Shown in pieces: positions 10,503 through 47,678 of a DNA stretch of 47,678 nucleotides (the first letter of the stretch is position 1; each line of letters starts with the position of its first letter). Below the pieces are notes generated by a model that ran no database searches, was not told the origin of the DNA, and saw only the letters and a program-made list of their open reading frames with translations. The stretch comes from Escherichia phage Lambda_ev058, in sequence record LR597651, one strand, 5' to 3'. The position numbers and the translations under genes are program-made.

Positions 10503-13074
10503 ACCGGTAGGCGATCTGGTCGTTGATTTAAGTCTGGATGCGGCCAGATTTGACGAGCAGATGGCCAGAGTCAGGCGTCATTTTTCCGGTACGGAAAGTG
10601 ATGCGAAAAAAACAGCGGCAGTCGTTGAACAGTCGCTGAGCCGACAGGCGCTGGCTGCACAGAAAGCGGGGATTTCCGTCGGGCAGTATAAAGCTGCCAT
10701 GCGTATGCTGCCTGCGCAGTTCACTGACGTGGCCACGCAGCTTGCAGGCGGGCAAAGTCCGTGGCTGATCCTGCTGCAACAGGGTGGTCAGGTGAAGGAC
10801 TCCTTCGGCGGGATGATCCCCATGTTCAGGGGGCTTGCCGGTGCGATCACCCTGCCGATGGTCGGGGCCACCTCGCTGGCGGTGGCGACCGGTGCGCTGG
10901 CGTATGCCTGGTATCAGGGCAACTCAACCCTGTCCGATTTCAATAAAACGCTGGTCCTTTCCGGTAATCAGGCGGGACTGACGGCAGATCGTATGCTGGC
11001 CCTGTCCAGATCCGGGCAGGCGGCAGGGCTGACGTTTAACCAGACCAGCGAGTCACTGACGGCGCTGGTGAATGCCGGTGTGCGTGGTGGTGAGCAGTTT
11101 GAGGCAATCAGCCAGAGTGTGGCGCGTTTCTCCTCTGCATCCGGCGTGGAGGTGGACAAGGTCGCTGAAGCCTTCGGGAAGCTGACCACTGACCCGACGT
11201 CTGGGTTGACGGCGATGGCGCGCCAGTTCCATAACGTGACGGCGGAACAGATTGCGTATGTTGCTCAGTTGCAGCGTTCCGGCGATGGGGCCGGGGCATT
11301 GCAGGCGGCGAACGAGGCCGCAACGAAAGGGTTTGATGACCAGACCCGTAAACTGAAAGATAACATGGGTACGCTGGAGACCTGGGCAGACAAGACTGCA
11401 CAGGCATTCAAATCCATGTGGGATGCGGTGCTGGATATTGGTCGCCCGGACTCCTCTGCAGATATGCTCGCCAAAGCTGAAAAGGCTTTTGATGAAGCGG
11501 ATAAAAAATGGCAGTGGTATCAGAGCCGAAGCCACCGGCGCGGTAAAACGTCAGCATTTCTTGCCAATCTCCGGGGGGCATGGGAGAAGAGAGAGAATGC
11601 GCGACTTGGGCTTTCAGCCGCCACGTTGCAGGCAGATCTTGAAAAGGCCAGTGAGATGGCAGCAAAAGATCGGGCCGAGTCTGAGGCATCACGGCTGAAA
11701 TATACCGAAGAGGCGCAGAAGGCTTACGAACGCCTGCAGACACCGCTGGAGAAATATACCGCCCGCCAGGAGGAACTGAATAAGGCACTGAAAGACGGAA
11801 AAATCCTGCAGGCAGATTACAACACGCTGATGGCGGCGGCGAAAAAGGACTATGAAGCGACGCTGAAAAAGCCGAAGCAGTCCGGCGTGAAAGTGTCTGC
11901 GGGCGATCGTCAGGAAGACAGTGCTCATGCTGCCCTGCTGACGCTTCAGGCAGAACTCCGGACACTGGAGAAGCATGCCGGAGCGAATGAGAAAATCAGC
12001 CAGCAGCGCCGGGATTTGTGGAAGGCGGAAAGTCAGTTCGCGGTACTGGAGGAGGCGGCGCAACGTCGCCAGCTGTCCGCACAGGAGAAATCCCTGCTGG
12101 CGCATAAAGATGAGACGCTGGAGTACAAACGCCAGCTGGCTGCACTTGGCGATAAGGTCACGTATCAGGAGCACCTGAACGCGCTGGCGCAGCAGGCGGA
12201 TAAATTCGCACAGCAGCAACGGGCAAAACGGGCAGCCATTGAGGCGAAAAACCGGGGGCTGACTGACCGGCAGGCAGCGCGGGACGCCACGGAACAGCGC
12301 CTGAAGGAACAGTATGGCGATAATCCGCTGGCGCTGAATAGCGTCATGTCAGAGCAGAAAAAGACCTGGGCGGCTGAAGACCAGCTTCGCGGGAGCTGGA
12401 TGGCAGGCCTCAGGTCAGGCTGGAGTGAGTGGGAAGAGAGCGCCACGGACAGTATGTCGCAGGTTAAAAGTGCAGCCACGCAGACCTTTGATGGTATTGC
12501 ACAGAATATGGCGGCGATGCTGACCGGCAGTGAACAGAACTGGCGCAGCTTCACCCGTTCCGTGCTGTCCATGATGACAGAAATTCTGCTTAAGCAGGCA
12601 ATGGTGGGGATTGTCGGGAGTATCGGCAGCGCCATTGGAGGTGCTACCGGTGGCGGCTCATCAGCGTCAGGTGGTGCAGCCATTCAGGCCGCTGCGGCGA
12701 AACTCCATTTTGCGACCGGAGGATTTACGGGAACCGGCGGCAAATATGAGCCAGCAGGGATTGTTCACCGTGGTGAATTTGTCTTCACGAAGGAGGCAAC
12801 CAGCCGGATTGGCGTGGGGAATCTCTACCGGCTGATGCGCGGCTATGCCACCGGTGGTTATGTCGGTACACCGGGCAGCATGGCGGACAGCCGGTCGCAG
12901 GCGTCCGGGAAGTTTGAGCAGAATAACCATGTGGTGATTAACAACGACGGCACGAACGGTCAGATAGGGCCACAGGCGCTGAAGGCGGTTTATGACGTAG
13001 CCCGTAAGGCGGCAATGGATGTTGTGACCGGGCAGATGCGTGATGGTGGTCTGTTCTCCGGAGGTGGACGATGA
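10495..13074 (+). CDS. H: tail tape measure protein H
   Basis: 859-aa ORF (lambda H is 853 aa) with coiled-coil-rich sequence, at the lambda H position after G/T. Confidence 0.95.
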   Translation: MAEPVGDLVVDLSLDAARFDEQMARVRRHFSGTESDAKKTAAVVEQSLSRQALAAQKAGISVGQYKAAMRMLPAQFTDVATQLAGGQSPWLILLQQGGQVKDSFGGMIPMFRGLAGAITLPMVGATSLAVATGALAYAWYQGNSTLSDFNKTLVLSGNQAGLTADRMLALSRSGQAAGLTFNQTSESLTALVNAGVRGGEQFEAISQSVARFSSASGVEVDKVAEAFGKLTTDPTSGLTAMARQFHNVTAEQIAYVAQLQRSGDGAGALQAANEAATKGFDDQTRKLKDNMGTLETWADKTAQAFKSMWDAVLDIGRPDSSADMLAKAEKAFDEADKKWQWYQSRSHRRGKTSAFLANLRGAWEKRENARLGLSAATLQADLEKASEMAAKDRAESEASRLKYTEEAQKAYERLQTPLEKYTARQEELNKALKDGKILQADYNTLMAAAKKDYEATLKKPKQSGVKVSAGDRQEDSAHAALLTLQAELRTLEKHAGANEKISQQRRDLWKAESQFAVLEEAAQRRQLSAQEKSLLAHKDETLEYKRQLAALGDKVTYQEHLNALAQQADKFAQQQRAKRAAIEAKNRGLTDRQAARDATEQRLKEQYGDNPLALNSVMSEQKKTWAAEDQLRGSWMAGLRSGWSEWEESATDSMSQVKSAATQTFDGIAQNMAAMLTGSEQNWRSFTRSVLSMMTEILLKQAMVGIVGSIGSAIGGATGGGSSASGGAAIQAAAAKLHFATGGFTGTGGKYEPAGIVHRGEFVFTKEATSRIGVGNLYRLMRGYATGGYVGTPGSMADSRSQASGKFEQNNHVVINNDGTNGQIGPQALKAVYDVARKAAMDVVTGQMRDGGLFSGGGR

Positions 13075-13400
13075 AAACCTTCCGCTGGAAAGTGAAACCG
13101 GGTATGGATGTGGCTTCGACTCCTTCCGTCAGGGAGGTGCGCTTTGGTGATGGTTACTCCCAGCGCGCGCCTGCCGGGCTGAATGCCAACCTGAAAACGT
13201 ACAGCGTGACGCTTTCTGTCCCCCGTTGGGAGGCCACGGCGCTGGAATCGTTTCTGGCAGAGCACGGAGGCTGGAAAGCCTTTCTGTGGACGCCGCCTTA
13301 TGACTGGCGGCAGATAAAGGTGATCTGCGCAAAATGGACGTCGCGGGTCAGTATGCTGCGTGTTGAGTTCAGCGCAGAGTTTAAACAGGTGGTGAACTGA
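13071..13400 (+). CDS. M: tail tip protein M
   Basis: 109-aa ORF, same length and order as lambda gpM. Confidence 0.9.
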   Translation: MKTFRWKVKPGMDVASTPSVREVRFGDGYSQRAPAGLNANLKTYSVTLSVPRWEATALESFLAEHGGWKAFLWTPPYDWRQIKVICAKWTSRVSMLRVEFSAEFKQVVN

Positions 13401-14098
13401 TGCAGGATATCCGGCAGGAAACACTGAATGAATGCACCCGTGCGGAGCAGTCGGCCAGCGTGGTGCTCTGGGAAATCGATCTGACAGAGGTCGGTGGTGA
13501 ACGTTATTTTTTCTGTAATGAGCAGAACGAAAAAGGTGAGCCGGTTACCTGGCAGGGGCGGCAGTATCTGGCGTATCCCATTCAGGGGAGTGGTTTTGAA
13601 CTGAATGGCAAAGGCACCAGTACGCGCCCCACGCTGGCAGTCTCTAACCTGTACGGCATGGTCACCGGGATGGCGGAAGACCTGCAGAGTCTGGTCGGCG
13701 GAACGGTGGTCAGGCGTAAGGTTTACGCCCGTTTTCTGGATGCGGTGAACTTCGTCAACGGAAACAGCGATGCCGATCCGGAGCAGGAGGTGATCAGCCG
13801 CTGGCGCATCGAGCAGTGCAGCGAACTGAGCGCGGTAAGTGCCTCCTTTGTACTGTCCACGCCGACGGAAACGGATGGTGCTGTTTTTCCGGGGCGCATC
13901 ATGCTGGCCAACACCTGTACCTGGACCTATCGCGGTGATGAGTGCGGTTATAGCGGTCCGGCGGTCGCGGATGAATATGACCAGCCGACGTCCGATATCA
14001 CGAAGGATAAATGCAGCAAATGCCTGAGTGGCTGTAAGTTTCGCAATAATGTCGGCAACTTTGGCGGCTTCCTTTCCATTAACAAACTTTCGCAGTAA
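13400..14098 (+). CDS. L: tail tip protein L
   Basis: 232-aa ORF, same length and order as lambda gpL; Cys cluster near the C-terminus. Confidence 0.9.
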   Translation: MQDIRQETLNECTRAEQSASVVLWEIDLTEVGGERYFFCNEQNEKGEPVTWQGRQYLAYPIQGSGFELNGKGTSTRPTLAVSNLYGMVTGMAEDLQSLVGGTVVRRKVYARFLDAVNFVNGNSDADPEQEVISRWRIEQCSELSAVSASFVLSTPTETDGAVFPGRIMLANTCTWTYRGDECGYSGPAVADEYDQPTSDITKDKCSKCLSGCKFRNNVGNFGGFLSINKLSQ

Positions 14099-14103
14099 AT
14101 CCC

Positions 14104-14847
14104 ATGACACAGACAGAATCAGCGATTCTGGCGCACGCCCGGCGATGTGCGCCAGCGGAGTCGTGCGGCTTCGTGGTAAGCACGCCGGAGGGGGAAAGAT
14201 ATTTTCCCTGCGTGAATATCTCCGGTGAGCCGGAGGCGTATTTCCGTATGTCGCCGGAAGACTGGCTGCAGGCAGAAATGCAGGGTGAGATTGTGGCGCT
14301 GGTCCACAGCCACCCCGGTGGTCTGCCCTGGCTGAGTGAGGCCGACCGGCGGCTGCAGGTGCAGAGTGATTTGCCGTGGTGGCTGGTCTGCCGGGGGACG
14401 ATTCATAAGTTCCGCTGTGTGCCGCATCTCACCGGGCGGCGCTTTGAGCACGGTGTGACGGACTGTTACACACTGTTCCGGGATGCTTATCATCTGGCGG
14501 GGATTGAGATGCCGGACTTTTATCGTGAGGATGACTGGTGGCGTAACGGCCAGAATCTCTATCTGGATAATCTGGAGGCGACGGGGCTGTATCAGGTGCC
14601 GTTGTCAGCGGCACAGCCGGGCGATGTGCTGCTGTGCTGTTTTGGTTCATCAGTGCCGAATCACGCCGCAATTTACTGCGGCGACGGCGAGCTGCTGCAC
14701 CATATTCCTGAACAACTGAGCAAACGAGAGAGGTACACCGACAAATGGCAGCGACGCACACACTCCCTCTGGCGTCACCGGGCATGGCGCGCATCTGCCT
14801 TTACGGGGATTTACAACGATTTGGTCGCCGCATCGACCTTCGTGTGA
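14104..14847 (+). CDS. K: tail tip assembly protein K (MPN/JAMM plus NlpC/P60-like); alternative start at 14248
   Basis: Full ORF of 247 aa. The lambda annotation corresponds to the internal start at 14248 (MSPEDWLQ...). The upstream extension carries an HSHPGG...SEAD JAMM-type motif, which argues for the longer product. Confidence 0.85.
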   Translation: MTQTESAILAHARRCAPAESCGFVVSTPEGERYFPCVNISGEPEAYFRMSPEDWLQAEMQGEIVALVHSHPGGLPWLSEADRRLQVQSDLPWWLVCRGTIHKFRCVPHLTGRRFEHGVTDCYTLFRDAYHLAGIEMPDFYREDDWWRNGQNLYLDNLEATGLYQVPLSAAQPGDVLLCCFGSSVPNHAAIYCGDGELLHHIPEQLSKRERYTDKWQRRTHSLWRHRAWRASAFTGIYNDLVAASTFV

Positions 14848-15416
14848 AAACGGGGGCTGAAGCCATCCGGGCACTGGCCACACAGCTCCCGGCGTTTCGT
14901 CAGAAACTGAGCGACGGCTGGTATCAGGTACGGATTGCCGGGCGGGACGTCAGCACGTCCGGGTTAACGGCGCAGTTACATGAGACTCTGCCTGATGGCG
15001 CTGTGATTCATATTGTTCCCAGAGTCGCCGGGGCCAAGTCAGGTGGCGTATTCCAGATTGTCCTGGGGGCTGCCGCCATTGCCGGATCATTCTTTACCGC
15101 CGGAGCCACCCTTGCAGCATGGGGGGCAGCCATTGGGGCCGGTGGTATGACCGGCATCCTGTTTTCTCTCGGTGCCAGTATGGTGCTCGGTGGTGTGGCG
15201 CAGATGCTGGCACCGAAAGCCAGAACTCCCCGTACACAGACAACGGATAACGGTAAGCAGAACACCTATTTCTCCTCACTGGATAACATGGTTGCCCAGG
15301 GCAATGTTCTGCCGGTTCTGTACGGTGAAATGCGCGTGGGGTCGCGGGTGGTCTCTCAGGAGATCAGCACGGCAGACGAAGGGGATGGTGGTCAGGTTGT
15401 GGTGATTGGTCGCTGA
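14745..15416 (+). CDS. I: tail tip protein I
   Basis: 223-aa ORF, same length and position as lambda gpI. Confidence 0.9.
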   Translation: MAATHTLPLASPGMARICLYGDLQRFGRRIDLRVKTGAEAIRALATQLPAFRQKLSDGWYQVRIAGRDVSTSGLTAQLHETLPDGAVIHIVPRVAGAKSGGVFQIVLGAAAIAGSFFTAGATLAAWGAAIGAGGMTGILFSLGASMVLGGVAQMLAPKARTPRTQTTDNGKQNTYFSSLDNMVAQGNVLPVLYGEMRVGSRVVSQEISTADEGDGGQVVVIGR

Positions 15417-15475
15417 TGAAAAACGTTTATGTGAAACCGCCTCCGGGCGGTTTTGTCGTTTATGGAGCGTGAGGA

Positions 15476-18400
15476 ATGGGTAAAGGCAGCAGTAAGGGGC
15501 ATACTCCGCGCGAAGCGAAGGACAACCTGAAGTCCACGCAGTTGCTGAGTGTGATCGATGCCATCAGCGAAGGGCCGGTTGAAGGTCCGGTGGATGGATT
15601 AAAAAGCGTGCTGCTGAACAGTACGCCAGTGCTGGACAGTGAGGGGAATACCAATATCTCCGGCGTCACGGTGGTGTTCCGGGCCGGTGAGCAGGAGCAG
15701 ACACCGCCGGAGGGATTTGAATCCTCCGGCTCCGAGACGGTGCTGGGTACGGAAGTGAAATACGACACGCCGATCACCCGGACCATCACGTCGGCAAACA
15801 TTGACCGACTGCGTTTTACCTTCGGCGTGCAGGCACTGGTGGAAACCACCTCAAAGGGGGACAGGAATCCGTCGGAAGTCCGCCTGCTGGTTCAGATCCA
15901 GCGTAATGGTGGCTGGGTGACGGAAAAAGACATCACCATTAAGGGCAAAACCACCTCGCAGTATCTGGCCTCGGTGGTGGTGGGTAACCTGCCGCCGCGC
16001 CCGTTCAATATCCGGATGCGCAGGATGACGCCGGACAGCACCACAGACCAGCTGCAGAACAAAACGCTCTGGTCGTCATACACCGAAATCATCGATGTGA
16101 AACAGGGCTACCCGAACACGGCACTGGTCGGCGTGCAGGTGGACTCGGAACAGTTCGGCAGTCAGCAGGTGAGCCGTAATTATCATCTTCGCGGGCGCAT
16201 TCTGCAGGTGCCGTCGAACTATAACCCGCAGACGCGGCAATACAGCGGTATCTGGGACGGAACGTTAAAACCGGCATACAGCAACAACATGGCCTGGTGT
16301 CTGTGGGATATGCTGACCCATCCGCGCTACGGCATGGGAAAACGTCTTGGTGCGGCGGATGTGGATAAATGGGCGCTGTATGTCATCGGCCAGTACTGCG
16401 ACCAGTCGGTGCCGGACGGCTTTGGCGGCACGGAGCCGCGCATTACCTGTAATGCGTACCTGACCACACAGCGCAAGGCGTGGGATGTGCTCAGTGATTT
16501 CTGCTCGGCGATGCGCTGTATGCCGGTATGGAACGGGCAGACGCTGACGTTCGTGCAGGACCGACCATCAGATAAGGTGTGGACCTATAACCGCAGTAAT
16601 GTGGTGATGCCGGATGATGGCGCGCCGTTCCGCTACAGCTTCAGCGCCCTGAAGGACCGCCATAATGCCGTTGAGGTGAACTGGATTGACCCGGATAACG
16701 GCTGGGAGACGGCGACAGAGCTCGTGGAGGATACGCAGGCCATTGCCCGTTACGGTCGTAATGTCACGAAGATGGATGCCTTTGGCTGTACCAGTCGGGG
16801 GCAGGCACACCGCGCCGGGCTGTGGCTGATTAAAACGGAACTGCTGGAAACGCAGACCGTGGATTTCAGCGTCGGCGCAGAAGGGCTTCGCCATGTACCG
16901 GGCGATGTTATTGAAATCTGTGATGATGACTATGCCGGTATCAGCACCGGTGGTCGTGTGCTGGCGGTGAACAGCCAGACCCGGACGCTGACGCTCGACC
17001 GTGAAATCACGCTGCCATCCTCCGGTACCACGCTGATAAGCCTGGTTGACGGAAGTGGCAATCCGGTCAGCGTGGAGGTTCAGTCCGTCACCGACGGCGT
17101 GAAGGTAAAAGTGAGCCGTGTTCCTGACGGTGTTGCTGAATACAGCGTATGGGGGCTGAAGCTGCCGACGCTGCGCCAGCGCCTGTTCCGCTGTGTGAGT
17201 ATCCGGGAGAACGATGACGGTACGTATGCCATCACCGCCGTGCAGCATGTACCGGAAAAAGAAGCCATCGTGGATAACGGGGCGCACTTTGACGGCGACC
17301 AGAGCGGCACGGTGAATGGTGTCACGCCGCCAGCGGTGCAGCACCTGACCGCCGAAGTCACCACAGACAGCGGGGAATATCAGGTGCTGGCGCGATGGGA
17401 CACGCCGAAGGTGGTGAAGGGCGTGAGCTTCCTGCTTCGCCTTACCGTGGCAGCGGACGACGGCAGTGAGCGGCTGGTCAGCATGGCCCGGACGACGGAA
17501 ACCACATACCGCTTCAGGCAACTGGCGCTGGGGAACTACAGGCTGACAGTCCGGGCGGTAAATGCGTGGGGGCAGCAGGGCGATCCGGCATCGGTATCGT
17601 TCCGGATTGCCGCACCGGCAGCGCCGTCGCAGATTGAGCTGACACCGGGGTATTTTCAGATAACCGCCACGCCCCATCTTGCCGTTTATGATCCGACGGT
17701 ACAGTTTGAGTTCTGGTTCTCGGAAAAGCGGATTGCGGATATCAGGCAGGTTGAAACCACAGCCCGCTATCTTGGCACGGCGCTGTACTGGATAGCTGCC
17801 AGTATCAATATCAAACCGGGCCATGATTATTATTTTTACATCCGCAGTGTGAACACCGTTGGCAAATCGGCATTTGTGGAGGCTGTTGGCCAGCCGAGTG
17901 ATGATGCATCCGGCTATCTGGATTTTTTCAAAGGCGAGATAGGGAAAAGCCATCTGGCTCAGGAGCTGTGGACGCAGATTGATAACGGTCAGCTTGCGCC
18001 TGACCTGGCTGAAATCAGGACGTCCATTACGGATGTCAGCAATGAAATCACGCAGACCGTCAATAAGAAACTGGAAGACCAGAGTGCGGCAATTCAGCAG
18101 ATACAGAAGGTTCAGGTTGATACAAATAATAACCTGAACAGCATGTGGGCTGTGAAGCTGCAGCAGATGCAGGACGGACGCCTTTATATCGCGGGTATTG
18201 GTGCCGGTATTGAGAACACCCCTGACGGCATGCAGAGTCAGGTGCTGCTGGCGGCGGACAGGATTGCGATGATTAATCCTGCGAATGGCAATACAAAGCC
18301 GATGTTTGTTGGGCAGGGCGATCAGATATTCATGAACGAAGTGTTCCTGAAATATCTGACGGCTCCCACCATTACCAGCGGTGGCAATCCCCCAACGTTT

Positions 18401-38690: not shown

Positions 38691-39401
38691 GTGCACAGAA
38701 AACCCCCAGCTAGGCTGGGGGTTCCGGAAAGCTTTCAGCTTTGAGCCAGTTATTAAAACCCCTTTTGATTTGTTAAAACACCTTGCGGTCTGGCAACTGC
38801 AAGTGTCAAACAAGAAATCAAAAGGGGGTCCCAATGGGGAACGAAAAGAGCTTAGCGCACACCCGATGGAACTGTAAATATCACATAGTTTTTGCGCCAA
38901 AATACCGAAGACAGGTGTTCTACAGAGAGAAGCGTAGAGCAATAGGCAGTATTTTGAGAAAGCTGTGTGAGTGGAAAAGCGTACGGATTCTGGAAGCTGA
39001 ATGCTGTGCAGATCATATCCATATGCTTGTGGAGATCCCGCCTAAAATGAGCGTATCCGGGTTTATGGGATATCTGAAAGGGAAAAGCAGTCTGATGCTT
39101 TACGAGCAGTTTGGTGATTTGAAATTCAAATACAGGAACAGGGAGTTCTGGTGCAGAGGGTACTACGTCGATACAGTGGGTAAGAACACGGCGAAGATAC
39201 AGGATTACATAAAGCACCAGCTTGAAGAGGATAAAATGGGAGAGCAGTTATCGATTCCCTATCCGGGCAGCCCGTTTACGGGCCGTAAGTAACGAAGTTG
39301 GATGCAAATGTCAGATCGTGTGCGCCTGTTAGGGCGCGGCTGGTAAGAGAGCCTTATAGGCGCATTTGAAAAACCTCCGGCTATGCCGGAGGATATTTAT
39401 T
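38691..39401 (+). mobile_element. IS200 insertion sequence (IS200/IS605 family)
   Basis: About 711 bp inserted in the ren-ninB spacer. Left-end stem-loop CCCCCAGC-TAG-GCTGGGGG (38702-38720), tnpA, and right-end hairpin CCTCCGG-CTATG-CCGGAGG (39374-39392). Boundaries inferred by comparison with the recalled lambda spacer; accurate to about 5 bp. Confidence 0.75.
38834..39292 (+). CDS. tnpA: IS200 transposase TnpA (Y1 HUH)
   Basis: 152-aa product from MGNEKSLAHTRWNCKYHIVFAPKYRRQ..., with the HxH motif (ADHIHML) and catalytic Tyr region; closely matches IS200 TnpA as recalled. Confidence 0.9.
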   Translation: MGNEKSLAHTRWNCKYHIVFAPKYRRQVFYREKRRAIGSILRKLCEWKSVRILEAECCADHIHMLVEIPPKMSVSGFMGYLKGKSSLMLYEQFGDLKFKYRNREFWCRGYYVDTVGKNTAKIQDYIKHQLEEDKMGEQLSIPYPGSPFTGRK

Positions 39402-39418
39402 TGGGGGAGAGGGAAGTC

Positions 39419-39859
39419 ATGAAAAAACTAACCTTTGAAATTCGATCTCCAGCACATCAGCAAAACGCTATTCACGCAGTACAGCAAATCCTTCCAGACC
39501 CAACCAAACCAATCGTAGTAACCATTCAGGAACGCAACCGCAGCTTAGACCAAAACAGGAAGCTATGGGCCTGCTTAGGTGACGTCTCTCGTCAGGTTGA
39601 ATGGCATGGTCGCTGGCTGGATGCAGAAAGCTGGAAGTGTGTGTTTACCGCAGCATTAAAGCAGCAGGATGTTGTTCCTAACCTTGCCGGGAATGGCTTT
39701 GTGGTAATAGGCCAGTCAACCAGCAGGATGCGTGTAGGCGAATTTGCGGAGCTATTAGAGCTTATACAGGCATTCGGTACAGAGCGTGGCGTTAAGTGGT
39801 CAGACGAAGCGAGACTGGCTCTGGAGTGGAAAGCGAGATGGGGAGATCGGGCTGCATGA
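39419..39859 (+). CDS. ninB: NinB recombination protein
   Basis: 146-aa product from MKKLTFEIRSPAHQQNAIHAVQQILPDPTKP..., matching lambda NinB as recalled. Confidence 0.9.
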   Translation: MKKLTFEIRSPAHQQNAIHAVQQILPDPTKPIVVTIQERNRSLDQNRKLWACLGDVSRQVEWHGRWLDAESWKCVFTAALKQQDVVPNLAGNGFVVIGQSTSRMRVGEFAELLELIQAFGTERGVKWSDEARLALEWKARWGDRAA

Positions 39860-40383
39860 CTATCAAATCAAATACGCCAGCACACGACAAGGACTGCTGG
39901 CAAACGCCGCTTTGGCTTTTTGATGCACTGGATATTGAGTTTGGATTCTGGCTGGATTCGGCAGCGAGCGACAAAAATGCTCTGTGTGCTCACTGGCTAA
40001 CTGAGGCCGACGACGCGCTCAATTCTGAGTGGGTAAGCCACGGTGCAATCTGGAATAACCCACCGTACAGCAATATCAGGCCGTGGGTGGAAAAAGCCGC
40101 TGAGCAGTGCATACAACAGCGACAGACGGTAGTTATGCTTGTGCCAGAGGATATGTCAGTCGGATGGTTCAGCAAGGCTCTGGAGAGTGTCGACGAAGTT
40201 CGCATTATCACTGATGGACGGATTAATTTTATCGAACCATCGACAGGGCTGGAGAAGAAGGGAAACAGCAAAGGCTCCATGCTGCTGATTTGGCGACCGT
40301 TCATCAGTCCTCGACGGATGTTTACTACCGTATCCAAAGCGGCATTGATGGCGATCGGGCAGGGCGTCAGGAGGGCGGCATGA
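39856..40383 (+). CDS. phage DNA N6-adenine methyltransferase (Dam-like, orphan)
   Basis: 175-aa product from [26 protein letters not shown]..., with the catalytic NPPY motif (WNNPPYS); start overlaps the ninB stop. Occupies the position of lambda ninC. Confidence 0.8.
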
Positions 40384-40556
40384 GGCGACAGCGACGAAGT
40401 TTCACCGACATCATCTGCGAAAACTGCAAATACCTTCCAACGAAACGCTCCAGAAATAAACGCAAGCCAATCCCAAAAGAATCTGACGTAAAAACCTTCA
40501 ATTACACAGCTCACCTGTGGGATATCCGGTGGCTAAGATATCGTGCGAGGAAATGA
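40380..40556 (+). CDS. ninE: NinE
   Basis: 58-aa product [52 protein letters not shown]..., matching lambda NinE as recalled. Confidence 0.85.
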
Positions 40557-40900
40557 CAATGGATTATTCACAGTTAAGTGATTTTGAAATTAACAGAATG
40601 GTAGGAGACATAATTTTTAAAGGCCTTTGGGCAAGTAAACCGGAAACATCAGGGAATAACACCAACAAATGGTATTACGGAAATGCTGATACAACTTTTG
40701 AGCCATTAAATCATTTGCCTGACTACTGCAATGATCCGAGCGCTTCATGGCCGATTATTGAGAAATACAGGATTTCTATCTTAGACCAGTTAACTGAATG
40801 GTGTGTGGATGCAAAAGGCGTAAGCCCAATATTTGATACCAGACCTCTCCGCGCCGCCATTATTGTCTTTCTCCTGATGCAGGAGGCCAATAATGCTTAG
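40553..40900 (+). CDS. hypothetical protein (nin region)
   Basis: 115-aa product from [19 protein letters not shown]...; AT-rich; no recognised homology. Confidence 0.5.
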
Positions 40901-41087
40901 CCCATCTCAATCCCTTCAATACCTGAAAGGAAGCATAGAGCGGGCTTCAATGTGCACAGAGTGGATTCTATCTAGGTTTAGCGCATACAGAAGATTGCCG
41001 GTAAAGGGCATGCCAAGCAAGTCGATGCTGCATATGCAAAAGAATGCGCGCGGGAAGGTATGGCGAGAACGCAGGTTATCTGGCTGA
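40893..41087 (+). CDS. ninF: NinF-like protein with divergent C-terminus
   Basis: 64-aa ORF; the first 10 residues [10 protein letters not shown] match the lambda NinF N-terminus as recalled, but the remainder lacks the Cys motifs. Confidence 0.4.
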
Positions 41088-41106
41088 AAGAGGGGGTAAT
41101 TAAGGC

Positions 41107-41469
41107 GTGAATACTTACCACATCACACTACCCTGGCCTCCGAGCAATAATCGCTATTATCGCCATAATCGCGGGCGCACGCACGTCAGCGCAGAGGGGC
41201 AGGCATACCGCGATAACGTCGCCCGAATCATTAAAAACGCAATGCTGGATATCGGCCTGGCGATGCCTGTGAAAATCCGCATTGAGTGCCACATGCCGGA
41301 TCGCCGTCGCCGTGACCTGGATAATCTGCAAAAAGCCGCTTTTGACGCACTCACCAAAGCAGGTTTCTGGCTGGATGATGCTCAGGTCGTTGATTACCGC
41401 GTTGTGAAGATGCCTGTTACCAAAGGTGGGAGGCTGGAATTGACCATCACCGAAATGGGGAATGAATGA
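41107..41469 (+). CDS. rusA: Holliday junction resolvase RusA
   Basis: 120-aa ORF matching E. coli DLP12 RusA as recalled ([34 protein letters not shown]...). Confidence 0.95.
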
Positions 41470-41606
41470 TGTTTGAGTTTTATATGGCAGAACGTCTTCG
41501 CCACCGCTGGGTGCGTCTGCGCTTATATCGTTTCCCCGGTTCTGTTTTGACCGATTACCGAATACTGAAGAATTACGCCAAAACACTGACAGGAGCAGGA
41601 GTATGA
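41466..41606 (+). CDS. ylcG: YlcG-like small protein
   Basis: 46-aa ORF below the track cut-off, translated by hand as [46 protein letters not shown]; overlaps the rusA stop; matches DLP12 YlcG as recalled. Confidence 0.7.
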
Positions 41607-41691
41607 AGTCAGAGATAACAATCAACTAATACTGTTTTGCTGATTTTTGCTTGTAATTGGCGTTCTGGTCTGATTTTTGTGGAGTAAGTTG

Positions 41692-42069
41692 ATGCGTGAT
41701 ATTCAGATGGTTCTTGAGCGTTGGGGAGCGTGGGCGGCTAATAATCATGAAGATGTGACCTGGTCGTCCATTGCCGCCGGTTTTAAGGGATTAATTCCTT
41801 CAAAAGTAAAATCTCGCCCGCAATGTTGTGACGATGACGCGATGATCATTTGCGGGTGCATGGCCCGTCTGAAAAATAACAACAGCGATTTGCATGATTT
41901 GTTAGTGGACTATTATGTCGGCGGCATGACTTTTATGGCGCTTGCGCGTAAGCATGGTAGATCTGATTGTTGGATTGGCAGGATGCTCCAAAAAGCTGAG
42001 GGCGTAGTGGAGGGCATGCTGATGGTGTTGGATCTCAGATTGGAGATGGATGCTGATTGTTTGAGATAA
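41692..42069 (+). CDS. Q: late gene antiterminator Q (phage 82 / DLP12 QuuD type)
   Basis: 125-aa product from [33 protein letters not shown]..., matching the Q82-type antiterminator as recalled. Confidence 0.9.
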
Positions 42070-42168
42070 TTAAAGGAAAAGTTGCTGTCTGGTTATCATT
42101 AGACTAATGTTTCAAATGTTAGAATCGCAACGTAGTTATGATCATATAACAGCTTGTTCCCTGATTTA

Positions 42169-42198
42169 GCCAGCCTCCCCAAAGGCTGGTTTTTTTTC
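42169..42198 (+). terminator. tR'-like intrinsic terminator downstream of pR' (Q target)
   Basis: Direct: GCCAGCCT-CCCCAAA-AGGCTGG stem followed by an 8-T run, about 100 bp downstream of Q. Confidence 0.6.
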
Positions 42199-42225
42199 TA
42201 ATAAGTATCAATCCGGTTAGGTATT

Positions 42226-42750
42226 TTATTGTTTGACCCATAATAGTTCATTGACATTGAATCCCAATTTTTGAGCAGTACGCACATAGTCTGCTTTTAC
42301 ATTATCTGGAATAGTTGGAGTCCGTGCCAGAATCCATAGGTATTCTCTGTTCGGACCACTGACAAGAGCATACTTATACTCATCATCCAGTTTGATTACA
42401 TTATAGCCACCATAGAAGGGGCCAAAAAACGAAACCTTCAACGCTGCAGTTGTATTATCTCCTGTAAAGTATGCTTTACCTTCGCTCTCGCTCCATTTGT
42501 TTTTCGTTGGGTCATATCCACGATTAAGTACACTAATCCCTCCGTCGTTCCGTTTCCCATAAGTGGCGCTGACCTGTTCCAGACCACGTTCAAATCGGTT
42601 CTCAAGCCGAGCTATTTCATACCATTTTCCGAGGTAGCGGTTGGTGTCAAAATTTGTAATCGGCTGCACACCTTTAGGTGGTGTCGGGGCCTTACATGCT
42701 ATCAGAGTGAAAGAGAGTGCAATGCCAGTCAACACAGGCCATAACTTCAT
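42226..42750 (-). CDS. blc: outer-membrane lipocalin lipoprotein (Blc-like)
   Basis: 174-aa ORF with lipobox LIAC after a signal peptide; lipocalin motifs (RYLGKWYEIAR, KVSFFGPFYGGYNVI, EYLWILARTPT) matching E. coli Blc as recalled. Confidence 0.85.
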   Translation of the reverse strand: MKLWPVLTGIALSFTLIACKAPTPPKGVQPITNFDTNRYLGKWYEIARLENRFERGLEQVSATYGKRNDGGISVLNRGYDPTKNKWSESEGKAYFTGDNTTAALKVSFFGPFYGGYNVIKLDDEYKYALVSGPNREYLWILARTPTIPDNVKADYVRTAQKLGFNVNELLWVKQ

Positions 42751-42942
42751 AATATATCCTGTACTTTTGATAGTTGAGAGTAAGTATTAAAGATAGATGA
42801 TTACTACCGATCACCTAAAGAACTTTCCTACTATATTAGGAATAGTCCATAACAAAAAAATTGTCAGTGATGACGGCAGAAAGGCAGTTTAGGTCGTGTA
42901 CTACACTGTTAACCTGTTAATGAATTAGTCAAGGGGTAGGCA

Positions 42943-43902
42943 ATGATAAAAAAACCTGTCGTTGGGATCAGTGGTTGTTTGGCCGGTTCTTCTGTCCGTT
43001 TTGATGGTGGTCACAAAAGAGCTAGCTTTTTAATGGACAAATTACTGGAATGGGTAACATTCAAACCAGTATGTCCGGAAATGGCTATAGGGCTTCCAGT
43101 TCCGCGTCCTGCTCTACGTCTTGTTCGCTCGGCGCAAGGAAATATACGGATGTGTTTCAGCCACGACCAGAATGAGGATGTTACAGAGAAAATGACAGAG
43201 TTTAGTCGTTCTTATCTTGACAAATTAAAGGATGTATCGGGATTTGTGGTTTGTGCAAAATCTCCTAGCTGTGGTATGGAACGCGTGCGTGTATATGATG
43301 AAAATGGTAATCGTGGTCGTAAAGATGGAGTGGGACTATTTACGAGCACGTTGATGGAAAGGTTTTCCTGGCTACCGGTTGAAGAGGATGGGCGACTACA
43401 TGATCCAGTGCTTCGTGAAAACTTTGTTGAAAGAGTATTTGCTTTACATGAGCTCAATCATCTTTATAAAGCGAAATTATCAAGAAGGGAATTATTAGCT
43501 TTTCATAGCCGTTATAAGCTTCAGTTGTTGGCGCATAGCCAGGCCGGTTATAAAGAGATGGGGCCATTTGTGGCTGCAATACATGAGTGGGCAGACCTTG
43601 AATCATACTTTGAGGTGTATCGTGAGAAGCTGATGGCGATTCTCAGAAAACCTGCATCACGTAAAAATCACACGAATGTGCTGATGCATATACAGGGATA
43701 TTTTAGTAACTGCTTAAATACACGTCAGCGTAAAGAGTTGAGCGATGTTATACTTAACTATCGAGCTGGCACGCTACCTCTTCTTGCGCCATTAACTTTG
43801 CTGAAGCATTACTTGGCAGAGTATCCTGATGATTATTTGCTTATACAGAATTACTTCCACCCCTATCCTGATGAACTGGCTCTAAGACTCTTGGTGAACT
43901 AG
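42943..43902 (+). CDS. DUF523-DUF1722 protein (YbgA/TudS-like; putative Fe-S thiouracil or 4-thiouridine desulfidase)
   Basis: 319-aa ORF with conserved Cys at roughly 12, 44 and 105-110 (GISGCLAG, KPVCPE, VCAKSPSCG) in the N-terminal half and a YbgA-like C-terminal half. Family assignment is from memory. Confidence 0.55.
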   Translation: MIKKPVVGISGCLAGSSVRFDGGHKRASFLMDKLLEWVTFKPVCPEMAIGLPVPRPALRLVRSAQGNIRMCFSHDQNEDVTEKMTEFSRSYLDKLKDVSGFVVCAKSPSCGMERVRVYDENGNRGRKDGVGLFTSTLMERFSWLPVEEDGRLHDPVLRENFVERVFALHELNHLYKAKLSRRELLAFHSRYKLQLLAHSQAGYKEMGPFVAAIHEWADLESYFEVYREKLMAILRKPASRKNHTNVLMHIQGYFSNCLNTRQRKELSDVILNYRAGTLPLLAPLTLLKHYLAEYPDDYLLIQNYFHPYPDELALRLLVN

Positions 43903-44211
43903 GCGTTTGGAATGCACCAACAAGATGATTTTCTCCTTAGAGAATGTTTACAATCGTAAAAACTTCACTATGATATCTATAGTTGTACAGTTTGTAAAAA
44001 AATTCGGTTCATGCTTAAGGTAATGTTAATATGTTAATTAATGATTAATAATCAAGCAAGCCAAAAATAGTTCTGTTTAATCTAGTATTACATAAATATT
44101 TTAAAGAAAATATCAAAGTTCATGATGATATAATGAGATTTTTCTCATTGAAAATATGGCAATTTTAATATTTCCACCTATACTTACTTAACTCAAATCT
44201 AATTATGTCAG

Positions 44212-44952
44212 GTGGATGGTATGCCATGCATATGTTCTATCATTTTGGTTTTGAACTCGTTTGATATCCGGCTTGGTAAAGAAAAAATCTCTCTAAAAAA
44301 AGGAAGTGTTGTTGCTATAGAATACAATTTAAAAGTTTTCTTTTCTTCAAATAAAGATAATATAATGATCGTGGATATTGAAGAGAAAACAGTTAATGAC
44401 TTCTTTAAAAACAATACACTCTCACCTTTTTCTGTAAGAAGATTTTATTCAGCATACTTGATAGTAAACTGTACAGACTATTCATTGTTAAAGAACTTGA
44501 TAGGTTGCTTGAATTGTGATGGTGAAACTACGGCTGTAGTTAAAAATTCAATATTATTTGCATGTCTTGCTATTTTATCCTCGGAAAAAATGTTTCAGAG
44601 TTTTTTGTTTGGGTGTCTTAATAGTTTAGGAAGCAAAGTTAAGGCTATTATTCACTCGGACATATCTGCAGCATGGAGACTTTGTGATATTTCTTCAAGA
44701 CTATGTCTGAGTGAAAGTTTGTTAAAAAGAAAACTAAAACACGAAGGCTTATCATTTAGCAAATTAATTCTTGAAGAACGAATGGTGATGGCTGAAAGGT
44801 TATTAAGCTACAATTTCTATCCTGTTGGGAAAGTTGCTAAAATATGTGGTTATGAAAGCGCGTCATATTTTATAAGTGTTTTCAGAAGATATTTTGGTGT
44901 TCCCCCCCATGAATATTCATCAAGATTTTTTTTAGAAAAAGGCAAGATGTAA
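44212..44952 (+). CDS. AraC/XylS-family transcriptional regulator (AT-rich; Rns/PerA/PatE-like)
   Basis: 246-aa ORF with a C-terminal double-HTH AraC signature (KVAKICGYESASYFISVFRRYFGVPPHEY); strongly AT-rich gene and upstream region. Start codon uncertain. Confidence 0.75.
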   Translation: MDGMPCICSIILVLNSFDIRLGKEKISLKKGSVVAIEYNLKVFFSSNKDNIMIVDIEEKTVNDFFKNNTLSPFSVRRFYSAYLIVNCTDYSLLKNLIGCLNCDGETTAVVKNSILFACLAILSSEKMFQSFLFGCLNSLGSKVKAIIHSDISAAWRLCDISSRLCLSESLLKRKLKHEGLSFSKLILEERMVMAERLLSYNFYPVGKVAKICGYESASYFISVFRRYFGVPPHEYSSRFFLEKGKM

Positions 44953-45013
44953 CGTGATGCGTTTTGATGATTTTGTAATTTTCATATTTGATGATTATAT
45001 GATGCTTTCAGCT

Positions 45014-45044
45014 ACGCCAGAATAATCGCTGGCGTTTTTCTTTT
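45014..45044 (+). terminator. intrinsic terminator after the AraC-family gene
   Basis: Direct: CGCCAG-AATAAT-CGCTGGCG stem followed by TTTTTCTTTT. Confidence 0.55.
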
Positions 45045-45119
45045 CTAATGTAACTTCTGTATCTTTCCCTCTTTCATTCCAAACCGTGTACACCATCCGT
45101 TATTCGCGGAGGTGAGGCT

Positions 45120-45335
45120 ATGAAATCCATGGACAAGTTAACAACGGGCATTGCCTACGGCACCTCTGCAGGCAGTGCTGGCTACTGGTTTTTACAGTGG
45201 CTTGATCAGGTCAGTCCGTCACAGTGGGCGGCGATTGGAGTGCTTGGAAGCCTTGTGTTGGGTTTTCTCACTTATCTGACAAACCTTTATTTCAAGATTA
45301 AAGAAGATAAGCGTAAGGCTGCGAGAGGTGAATAA
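45120..45335 (+). CDS. S: holin, phage-21-type pinholin (class II, dual start)
   Basis: 71-aa [53 protein letters not shown]... with the M1-K2-S3-M4 dual-start motif and two TMDs; matches S21 as recalled. Confidence 0.9.
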
Positions 45336-45832
45336 TGTCGCCATCATTACGCAAGGCTGTAGCAGCTGCTATTGGTGGTGGGGCTGTTGCCATAGCGTCT
45401 GTGCTCATCACTGGTCCGAGTGGTGACGATGGTCTGGAAGGTGTCAGCTACATACCATATAAAGATATTGTTGGTGTATGGACTGTATGTCACGGGCATA
45501 CAGGAAAAGACATCATGCTCGGTAAAACGTATACCAAAGCAGAATGCAAAGCACTCTTGAATAAAGACCTTGCCACTGTCGCCAGACAAATTAACCCGTA
45601 CATCAAAGTCGATATACCGGAAACAACGCGCGGCGCTCTTTACTCATTCGTTTACAACGTGGGTGCTGGCAATTTCAGAACATCGACGCTTCTTCGCAAA
45701 ATAAACCAGGGCGATATCAAAGGCGCATGTGATCAGTTACGTCGCTGGACATATGCTGGCGGTAAGCAATGGAAAGGTCTCATGACTCGTCGTGAGATTG
45801 AGCGTGAAATCTGTTTGTGGGGTCAGCAATGA
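45335..45832 (+). CDS. R: SAR endolysin (phage-21-type lysozyme)
   Basis: 165-aa ORF with an N-terminal signal-anchor-release segment ([20 protein letters not shown]) and T4-lysozyme-like E..D..T catalytic spacing; matches R21 as recalled. Confidence 0.9.
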
Positions 45833-46290
45833 ACAGAGTAACCGCGATTATCTCCGCTCTGGTTATCTGCATCATCGTCTGCCTGTCATGGGCTGTTAAT
45901 CATTACCGTGATAACGCCATTACCTACAAAGCCCAGCGCGACAAAAATGCCAGAGAACTGAAGCTGGCGAACGCGGCAATTACTGACATGCAGATGCGTC
46001 AGCGTGATGTTGCTGCGCTCGATGCAAAATACACGAAGGAGTTAGCTGATGCGAAAGCTGAAAATGATGCTCTGCGTGATGATGTTGCCGCTGGTCGTCG
46101 TCGGTTGCACATCAAAGCAGTCTGTCAGTCAGTGCGTGAAGCCACCACCGCCTCCGGCGTGGATAATGCAGCCTCCCCCCGACTGGCAGACACCGCTGAA
46201 CGGGATTATTTCACCCTCAGAGAGAGGCTGATCACGATGCAAAAACAACTGGAAGGAACCCAGAAGTATATTAATGAGCAGTGCAGATAG
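45829..46290 (+). CDS. Rz: spanin inner-membrane subunit Rz
   Basis: 153-aa product from [29 protein letters not shown]..., matching lambda Rz as recalled; start overlaps the R stop. Confidence 0.9.
46049..46231 (+). CDS. Rz1: spanin outer-membrane lipoprotein Rz1 (embedded in Rz, +1 frame)
   Basis: 60-aa ORF entirely within Rz, with lipobox VVGC and a proline-rich segment ([15 protein letters not shown]). Confidence 0.85.
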
Positions 46291-46321
46291 AGCTGCCCAT
46301 ATCGATGGGCAACTCATGCAA

Positions 46322-46615
46322 TTATTGTGAGCAATAGACACGCGCTTCCAGCGGAGTATAAATGCCTAAAGTAATAAAACCGAGCAATCCATTTACGAAT
46401 GTTTGCTGGGTTTCTGTTTTAACAACATTTTCTGCGCCGCCACAAATTTTGGCTGCATCAACAGTTTTCTCCTGTCCAATTCCCGAAACGAAGAAGTGAT
46501 GGGTGATGGTTTCCTTTGGTGTTACTGCTGTCGGTTTGTTTCCAACAGTAAACGTCTGTTGAGCACATCCTGTAATAAGCATTGCCAGAGCGGCAGAAAA
46601 CAACATTTTTTTCAT
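46322..46615 (-). CDS. bor: Bor lipoprotein (serum resistance)
   Basis: 97-aa product from MKKMLFSAALAMLITGCAQQTFTV..., with lipobox ITGC; matches lambda Bor as recalled. The track ORF begins 16 codons upstream. Confidence 0.9.
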   Translation of the reverse strand: MKKMLFSAALAMLITGCAQQTFTVGNKPTAVTPKETITHHFFVSGIGQEKTVDAAKICGGAENVVKTETQQTFVNGLLGFITLGIYTPLEARVYCSQ

Positions 46616-46974
46616 CTTATTATCCTGCATTGTTAAAAACGGCAGAATCCTATGTGACAACAATTAAACGATAGTTAAATGGATTGATGAAAATTAAAAC
46701 TATATAGGTGGATGCTCAGCCTATTGGAGGAGGGGGGCACTCAGAATCCTGTGGAATGAAATAAACCGCTCTTTCTGTCCATTACCCTTTTAGCTGCGCT
46801 GTATCGTCGCCGTATTCCCGCATTAACCATGACCGTAGCCCGACGGGGAATTCCTTCTGCGTGAGTGTGCGGGAATAATCAAAAACGATGCACACCGGGT
46901 TTTACTGTGCTGACAGACGCAGGGTTACCCTCATAGTCGCTTTTCCGGTGCGATGGTGGAAGAAACCGGGATGT

Positions 46975-47169
46975 TTATTCATCATCACTTTGGATTGATG
47001 TACATGCTCTCTTTTCTGACGTTAGTCTCCGACGGCAGGCTTCAATGACCCAGGCTGAGAAATTCCCAGACCCTTTTTGCTCAAGAGCGATGTTAATTTG
47101 TTCAATCATTTGGTTAGGAAAGCGGATGTTGCGGGTTGTTGTTCTGCGGGTTCTGTTCTTAGTTGACAT
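46975..47169 (-). CDS. hypothetical protein (YlcI/DUF3950-like)
   Basis: 64-aa basic ORF MSTKNRTRRTTTRNIRFPNQMIEQINIALEQKGSGNFSAWVIEACRRRL...; found near the right end of lambdoid genomes. Confidence 0.55.
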   Translation of the reverse strand: MSTKNRTRRTTTRNIRFPNQMIEQINIALEQKGSGNFSAWVIEACRRRLTSEKRACTSIQSDDE

Positions 47170-47326
47170 GAGGTTGCCCCGTATTCAGTGTCGCTGATTT
47201 GTATTGTCTGAAGTTGTTTTTACGTTAAGTTGATGCAGATCAATTAATACGATACCTGCGTCATAATTGATTATTTGACGTGGTTTGATGGCGTAGATGC
47301 ACGTTGTGACATGTAGATGATAATTA

Positions 47327-47678
47327 CTGTCTCTTATACACATCTCCGAGCCCACGAGACTAAGGCGAATCTCGTATGCCGTCTTCTGCTTGAAAAAAAA
47401 AATTGTCACGTACAAAGAAAGTAGCATTCCAATGGTCTATCAGGTAATCTTTAACAAAACGTTGAATACCAAAAGCGCCTACACCATCACTTGCTAAGCG
47501 GCTGTTGAACCACTTCTCACTACGGAGATGTGTAGAAGAGAAAGAATAGGATTGAGGTAACTGGGCTTGATTATAATGGTAAGATCGATAGTGTGATAAG
47601 ATTTTTTTTTTTTCAAGCAGAAGACGGCATACGAGATTCGCCTTAGTCTCGTGGGCTCGGAGATGTGTATAAGAGACA
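47327..47678. other. sequencing artefact: Illumina Nextera/P7 adapter sequences in inverted orientation flanking a ~200-bp unrelated insert
   Basis: Direct: 47327-47392 reads CTGTCTCTTATACACATCTCCGAGCCCACGAGAC + TAAGGCGA + ATCTCGTATGCCGTCTTCTGCTTG, then a 10-A run. 47614-47678 is its reverse complement (CAAGCAGAAGACGGCATACGAGAT...AGATGTGTATAAGAGACA), preceded by a T-run. These are the Tn5 mosaic end, an i7 index and the P7 sequence. Confidence 0.95.

Follow-up and report, generated by a model that had tools for sequence, protein, structure and literature searches.

Adapter read-through at the ends of phage contigs

Nextera adapter sequence at the ends of assembled phage contigs belongs to a well-known class of technical contamination. 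We observed that a 66-mer of this adapter matches 43 GenBank phage records, and that the adapter with any index, followed by a run of ten A (A10), occurs in 94 copies on 88 IMG/VR contigs. The copies share a number of features. The contig terminus is the site of 85 of the 94, the A run is exactly 10 nt long in 70 (the modal length), and the 8-nt index slot is filled by only 10 distinct words, TAAGGCGA among them. In 19 of the 94 copies an uninterrupted reading frame of 30 codons or more contains the peptide LVGSEMCIRDS, in agreement with an earlier note on the DNA studied here, which had called this peptide a recurrent adapter-derived pseudo-protein. The P7 oligonucleotide of the Illumina flow cell carries a T10 linker, and reads running on into the complement of that linker would give the modal A10.

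The adapter is also found away from contig ends. In several deposited phage genomes (e.g. LR535910 SPFM13, MK327946 G4507 and MT584805 Tomato), near-full-length adapter matches lie inside the record, where the annotation shows baseplate hub/tail lysozyme or DNA polymerase genes. This suggests internal adapter-mediated misjoins in such records.

We analyzed the record LR597651 of Escherichia phage Lambda_ev058, a stretch of 47,678 nt that we refer to as the window, and compared it with its relatives. The segment 46300-47326 is 100% identical to lambda-like coliphages including Lambda_2E9, 4B5, 2G7a, ev087, ev245, ev203, ev110, ev066 and 1H12. Among these, the sister record Lambda_ev110 (LR597652) is 99.7-100% identical to the phage and, like Lambda_ev058, has a right end with a T run and a reverse-complement adapter: it reads ...GGTTACGGGGC, T8, and then P7, index, read-2 segment and mosaic end in reverse complement. 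However, Lambda_ev110 includes the true right end (...GGTTACG plus GGGC), followed by T8 and the adapter; it carries the index CTAGTACG in place of the TCGCCTTA of Lambda_ev058; and it has a single adapter copy with no foreign insert. The identical 66-mer, index included, is also present in LR597643 (ev017) and MH538296.

The names of the closest genomes, and of the Felixounavirus VpaE1_ev035 discussed below, match the 'ev' coliphage series of one project (PMC6969025), in which lambda-like, Felixounavirus and T5-like coliphages were sequenced. That project used a MiSeq run and SPAdes assembly with k up to 127, and its authors reported the same adapter string inside reads (PMC6969025). The methods of that paper name the TruSeq Nano kit; its clipping sequence and the adapters in its genomes are Nextera-type (mosaic end plus CCGAGCCCACGAGAC). 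We regard the link between the tail of Lambda_ev058 and this run as circumstantial.

The contig tail is built from inverted copies of a Nextera adapter

The last 352 bases of the contig (47327-47678) consist of Nextera adapter read-through and error-rich scraps from two other coliphages. An exact 66-nt adapter occupies 47327-47392 on the plus strand. It begins with the 19-nt Tn5/Nextera mosaic end CTGTCTCTTATACACATCT (47327-47345, 0 mismatches), which directly adjoins phage sequence and marks the most distal tagmentation site. The mosaic end is followed by the Nextera read-2 segment CCGAGCCCACGAGAC (47346-47360), the 8-nt i7 index TAAGGCGA (47361-47368), presumably catalogue index N701, and the P7 complement ATCTCGTATGCCGTCTTCTGCTTG (47369-47392). 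All three are exact, and their order over 47346-47392 is that of Nextera i7/P7 read-through. After P7 comes an A10 run on the plus strand (47393-47402), and then a 200-nt insert (47403-47602) with a GC content of 0.395, compared to 0.50 in the phage part. On its far side lie a T11 run (47603-47613, plus strand), of which 10 T are the complement of the A10 arm, and an inverted adapter on the minus strand (47614-47678) comprising P7, index, read-2 segment and mosaic end. This second copy is exact up to the contig edge, where the mosaic end is cut off before its final G.

A repeat finder recovered the same architecture as an inverted repeat with 75-nt arms (47328-47402 and 47604-47678) that are 100% complementary, together with a second pairing, not perfect, of the mosaic end with 47523-47544. 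When up to 3 mismatches were allowed, the window held no mosaic-end sites beyond the copies in the tail, and the number of matches expected by chance was 0.00 (100 shuffles). No TruSeq, P5 or Nextera read-1 adapter was found elsewhere in the window. These results confirm the earlier note in reading 47327-47678 as an Illumina adapter chimera with a poly-A run, a poly-T run and a reverse-complement adapter.

The tail resembles the read-through class in having an exact adapter with A10 at a contig terminus, pointing outward, and in encoding the pseudo-peptides LVGSEMCIRDS and VSYTHLRAHET. Most of the IMG/VR contigs end right after A10, whereas the tail of Lambda_ev058 continues through 200 nt of foreign, error-rich DNA into the reverse-complement adapter, resulting in a hairpin-like end with 75-nt arms. 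We conclude that the tail is almost certainly a library and assembly artefact and not phage DNA. It is a member of the known contamination class, unusual only in that it extends through foreign reads into a hairpin-like structure.

An unrelated segment flanked by inverted mosaic ends might also be expected of a genuine Tn5-derived transposon, or of an engineered cassette with inverted 19-bp mosaic ends, inserted near the right end of the phage. We consider such an element extremely improbable. The 75-nt inverted repeat includes the index, P7 and A10/T10, which have no role in transposition, and the cargo is made up of pieces of two genes from lytic phages and includes neither a transposase nor a marker. 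No phage sequence lies past the right arm, which precludes a 9-bp target duplication in the contig, and the 42 nt leading to cos are absent. Moreover, the same structure recurs at the termini of dozens of unrelated contigs. With neither functional cargo nor a target-site duplication found, a Tn5 or mini-Tn5 insertion is effectively refuted, and the artefact reading is retained.

The phage sequence stops short of both cohesive ends

We aligned the window with lambda (NC_001416) and Lambda_2E9 and observed that 47326 is the last position with homology to lambda-type genomes. The two references run 42 nt further, ending ...CCGACAGGTTACG / ...CGACAGGTTACG. The earlier note had placed the stop at about 47326, roughly 45 bp short of the expected right end; the position holds to the base, and the shortfall is corrected to 42 nt. 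At the left contig end (1..60, plus strand), position 1 corresponds to lambda coordinate 44 (alignment with NC_001416 and LR595860) and to position 44 of Lambda_2E9. The contig is thus without the first 43 nt of lambda, made up of the 12-nt cohesive end GGGCGGCGACCT and 31 nt beyond it. No adapter is present at this end. Neither GGGCGGCGACCT on the left nor ...CCGACAGGTTACG on the right occurs in the contig, which has no cos site. The missing stretches are expected to be those of Lambda_2E9 (left GGGCGGCGACCTCGCGGGTTTTCGCTATTTATGAAAATTTTCC, right TTATCATTTTGTGGGTCCTTTCCGGCGATCCGACAGGTTACG).

The contig is collinear with lambda and Lambda_2E9 to within 43 and 42 nt of their ends, but unlike the lambda cos termini it has neither the cohesive end nor the outermost 42-43 nt of either side. 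As judged from these alignments, such collinearity is consistent with a linear genome packaged from cos. With Tn5 tagmentation, about 50 bp at the ends of a linear template go unsampled, and such an end-sampling gap would fit the near-symmetric losses of 43 and 42 nt. With cos and the outermost bases missing (43 nt at the left end, 42 nt at the right), the genome should not be called complete.

The interior of the tail derives from two other coliphages

The earlier note had described the middle of the tail as about 200 bp of unrelated AT-rich sequence. It is indeed unrelated to the phage and low in GC, but it is not anonymous: we found in it fragments of a Felixounavirus and of a T5-like phage, and a third mosaic end. 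The first 122 nt (47403-47524, plus strand) match, in antisense, a fragment of the Felixounavirus nicotinamide phosphoribosyltransferase (NAMPT) gene, with VpaE1_ev035 as the best match at 95.9%. When five Felixounavirus relatives were aligned, the window shared the VpaE1_ev035 base at all sites of natural variation, including two at which ev035 differs from the other four. A degraded mosaic end plus CCG (CTTTCTCTTCTACACATCTCCG) follows on the minus strand (47523-47544), with 2 mismatches within the 19-nt mosaic end. The remaining 56 nt (47547-47602, plus strand) match, in antisense, part of a Clp-like protease gene from T5-like phages (Tequintavirus), with an identity of about 85% to relatives.

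Next to this allelic agreement, the interior carries private differences. The Felixounavirus fragment has 5 of them relative to its relatives, all transversions and all non-synonymous, and 4 of the 5 fall at sites that are invariant in all five relatives. In the T5-like fragment, 8 private substitutions affect positions that do not vary among three relatives. Of the 15 private substitutions in the interior as a whole, 14 are transversions (P = 0.019 against random substitution) and 10 are A<->C or G<->T changes (P = 0.0085 against random substitution). Miscalls between A and C and between G and T are typical of four-colour Illumina chemistry. Apparent errors affect 4% of the positions in the Felixounavirus fragment; this figure rises to 10% in the degraded mosaic end and to 14% in the T5-like fragment, as would be expected if read quality decayed. 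Because of this substitution pattern, we read the differences as base-call errors rather than natural variation. The data point to an interior composed of miscalled copies of real sequences from other libraries, as opposed to diverged homologues.

The same features bear on true co-infection or recombination of the lambda-like phage with Felixounavirus or T5-like phages. All three are coliphages able to share a host. However, the fragments measure only 122 nt and 56 nt and come, in antisense, from within coding sequence; synthetic adapter lies between them and adapters flank them; and their substitutions are non-synonymous and error-like. We assign recombination only a negligible probability, and the flanking synthetic sequences effectively refute it.

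How the foreign pieces came to be joined was assessed from their junctions, which share 3-6 nt of microhomology with the adapter: CGG where the Felixounavirus fragment meets the mosaic end, and TTTCAA where the T5-like fragment meets P7. At the A10|TTGTCACG junction, no A-run homology exists in the Felixounavirus genome. Template switching on an A run was rejected for this junction, as the genome has a T run there and the orientation does not fit. Read on the minus strand, the T5-like fragment followed by the mosaic end and CCG resembles normal read-through, and Felixounavirus sequence then stands where AGCCCACGAGAC would be expected. Read on the plus strand, the mosaic end that the Felixounavirus fragment runs into is oriented opposite to what plain read-through would give, and the two overlap by CGG only. 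A single mixed-cluster read thus does not readily account for the whole interior, and no single simple model fits the inner junctions.

These junctions raise the question whether the tail is an artefact whose 200-nt interior is nonetheless a real chimeric library molecule. Here, fragments of the Felixounavirus, T5-like and lambda libraries would have been joined by PCR template switching or Tn5 strand transfer, as distinct from calling past the end of a template or from a mixed cluster. The interior is real gene sequence of two phages and not noise, the mosaic end lies directly before the T5-like fragment in the orientation of a Tn5 strand-transfer product, and the overlaps with the adapter are of a kind that favors physical joining. 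On the other hand, 2 mismatches in a synthetic 19-nt mosaic end point to poor base calls. So do private substitutions at 4-14%, mostly A<->C or G<->T transversions, which are not those of a clean molecule, and the A10/T10 beside P7 on both sides places the interior outside any normal library molecule. We therefore hold a real chimeric molecule to be the less probable origin, while giving it appreciable weight: the interior may be the trace of a physical chimera between libraries that arose on the flow cell or during PCR. If so, this chimera and the match to the VpaE1_ev035 allele would together signify cross-sample carry-over in a multiplexed phage run, which might have affected sister public genomes. 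This would be a technical curiosity and not biology.

A model for the origin of the tail

The reading that we prefer, an artefact of read-through and assembly with a miscalled interior, can be set out as follows. The virion DNA would be linear with lambda-type cos ends, and the outermost Tn5 insertions would lie 43 and 42 nt from those ends. Short-insert reads ending at the 47326 site would have run through the mosaic end, the index and P7, and then entered the complement of the flow-cell T10 linker, producing A10. Past A10 the template would end, and the calls beyond it may reflect a low-quality or mixed signal, or else molecules that are chimeras of libraries sequenced together, namely those of a VpaE1_ev035-type Felixounavirus and a T5-like phage.

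During assembly, untrimmed adapter read-through would have supplied the only k-mers able to extend the contig past 47326, and a de Bruijn assembler would probably have followed them into the foreign material. It would then have left through the reverse complement of the same adapter node, and stopped where the adapter mosaic end meets many different inserts. We infer that the contig was extended past 47326 because untrimmed adapter k-mers were present and no genuine reads lay beyond. The phage|adapter junction has 0 matches in IMG/VR, and no GenBank phage record carries the tail 47327-47678.

Adapter-derived open reading frames and annotation

Two open reading frames overlap the tail. The first (47185-47427, minus strand, 80 aa) contains LVGSEMCIRDS and translates the adapter: its C-terminal part is encoded by authentic phage DNA, and adapter, A10 and foreign sequence encode the N-terminal part. 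A Pfam search with the 80-aa product returned no family. The earlier note had identified this frame as adapter-derived and warned against annotating it, and our translation upholds the identification. The second (47317-47424, plus strand, 35 aa, MIITVSYTHLRAHETKANLVCRLLLEKK...) lies on the adapter sense strand, and its type of peptide is annotated as a hypothetical protein in LR597652. Because the tail is an artefact, both frames are meaningless and are not to be annotated.

The risk of annotation is real. In Lambda_ev110 an adapter peptide has been deposited as the CDS VUF54222.1, 'hypothetical protein' (LR597652.1 46500-46770, locus 189-269), whose sequence VSYTHLRAHETVLDLVCRLLLEKKAP is a pure adapter translation. 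Adapter tails reach public databases as 'hypothetical proteins' in this way and can seed false homology clusters. For Lambda_ev058 the matter is one of data hygiene only, a technical artefact without biological significance. The contig should be trimmed at 47326, and the frames at 47185-47427 (minus) and 47317-47424 (plus) should be dropped.

Other differences from Lambda_2E9

The comparison with Lambda_2E9 also showed how the phage part of the window differs from this relative. A 705-bp insertion lies at 38691-39395, between ren and ninB. It contains an ORF (38783-39292) for an IS200-type Y1 transposase (Pfam PF01797, E = 5e-38). Over the insertion and its ren/ninB flanks, Escherichia phage PhiR63_2 (PV340574) gives a 98.4% match. 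The last 7.9 kb (39396-47326) are 100% identical to Lambda_2E9. The differences are concentrated elsewhere, with 81 of 83 clustering at 12500-16500, in the tail genes. From its distribution along the alignment, this 12.5-16.5 kb cluster looks like a recombination patch in the tail module.
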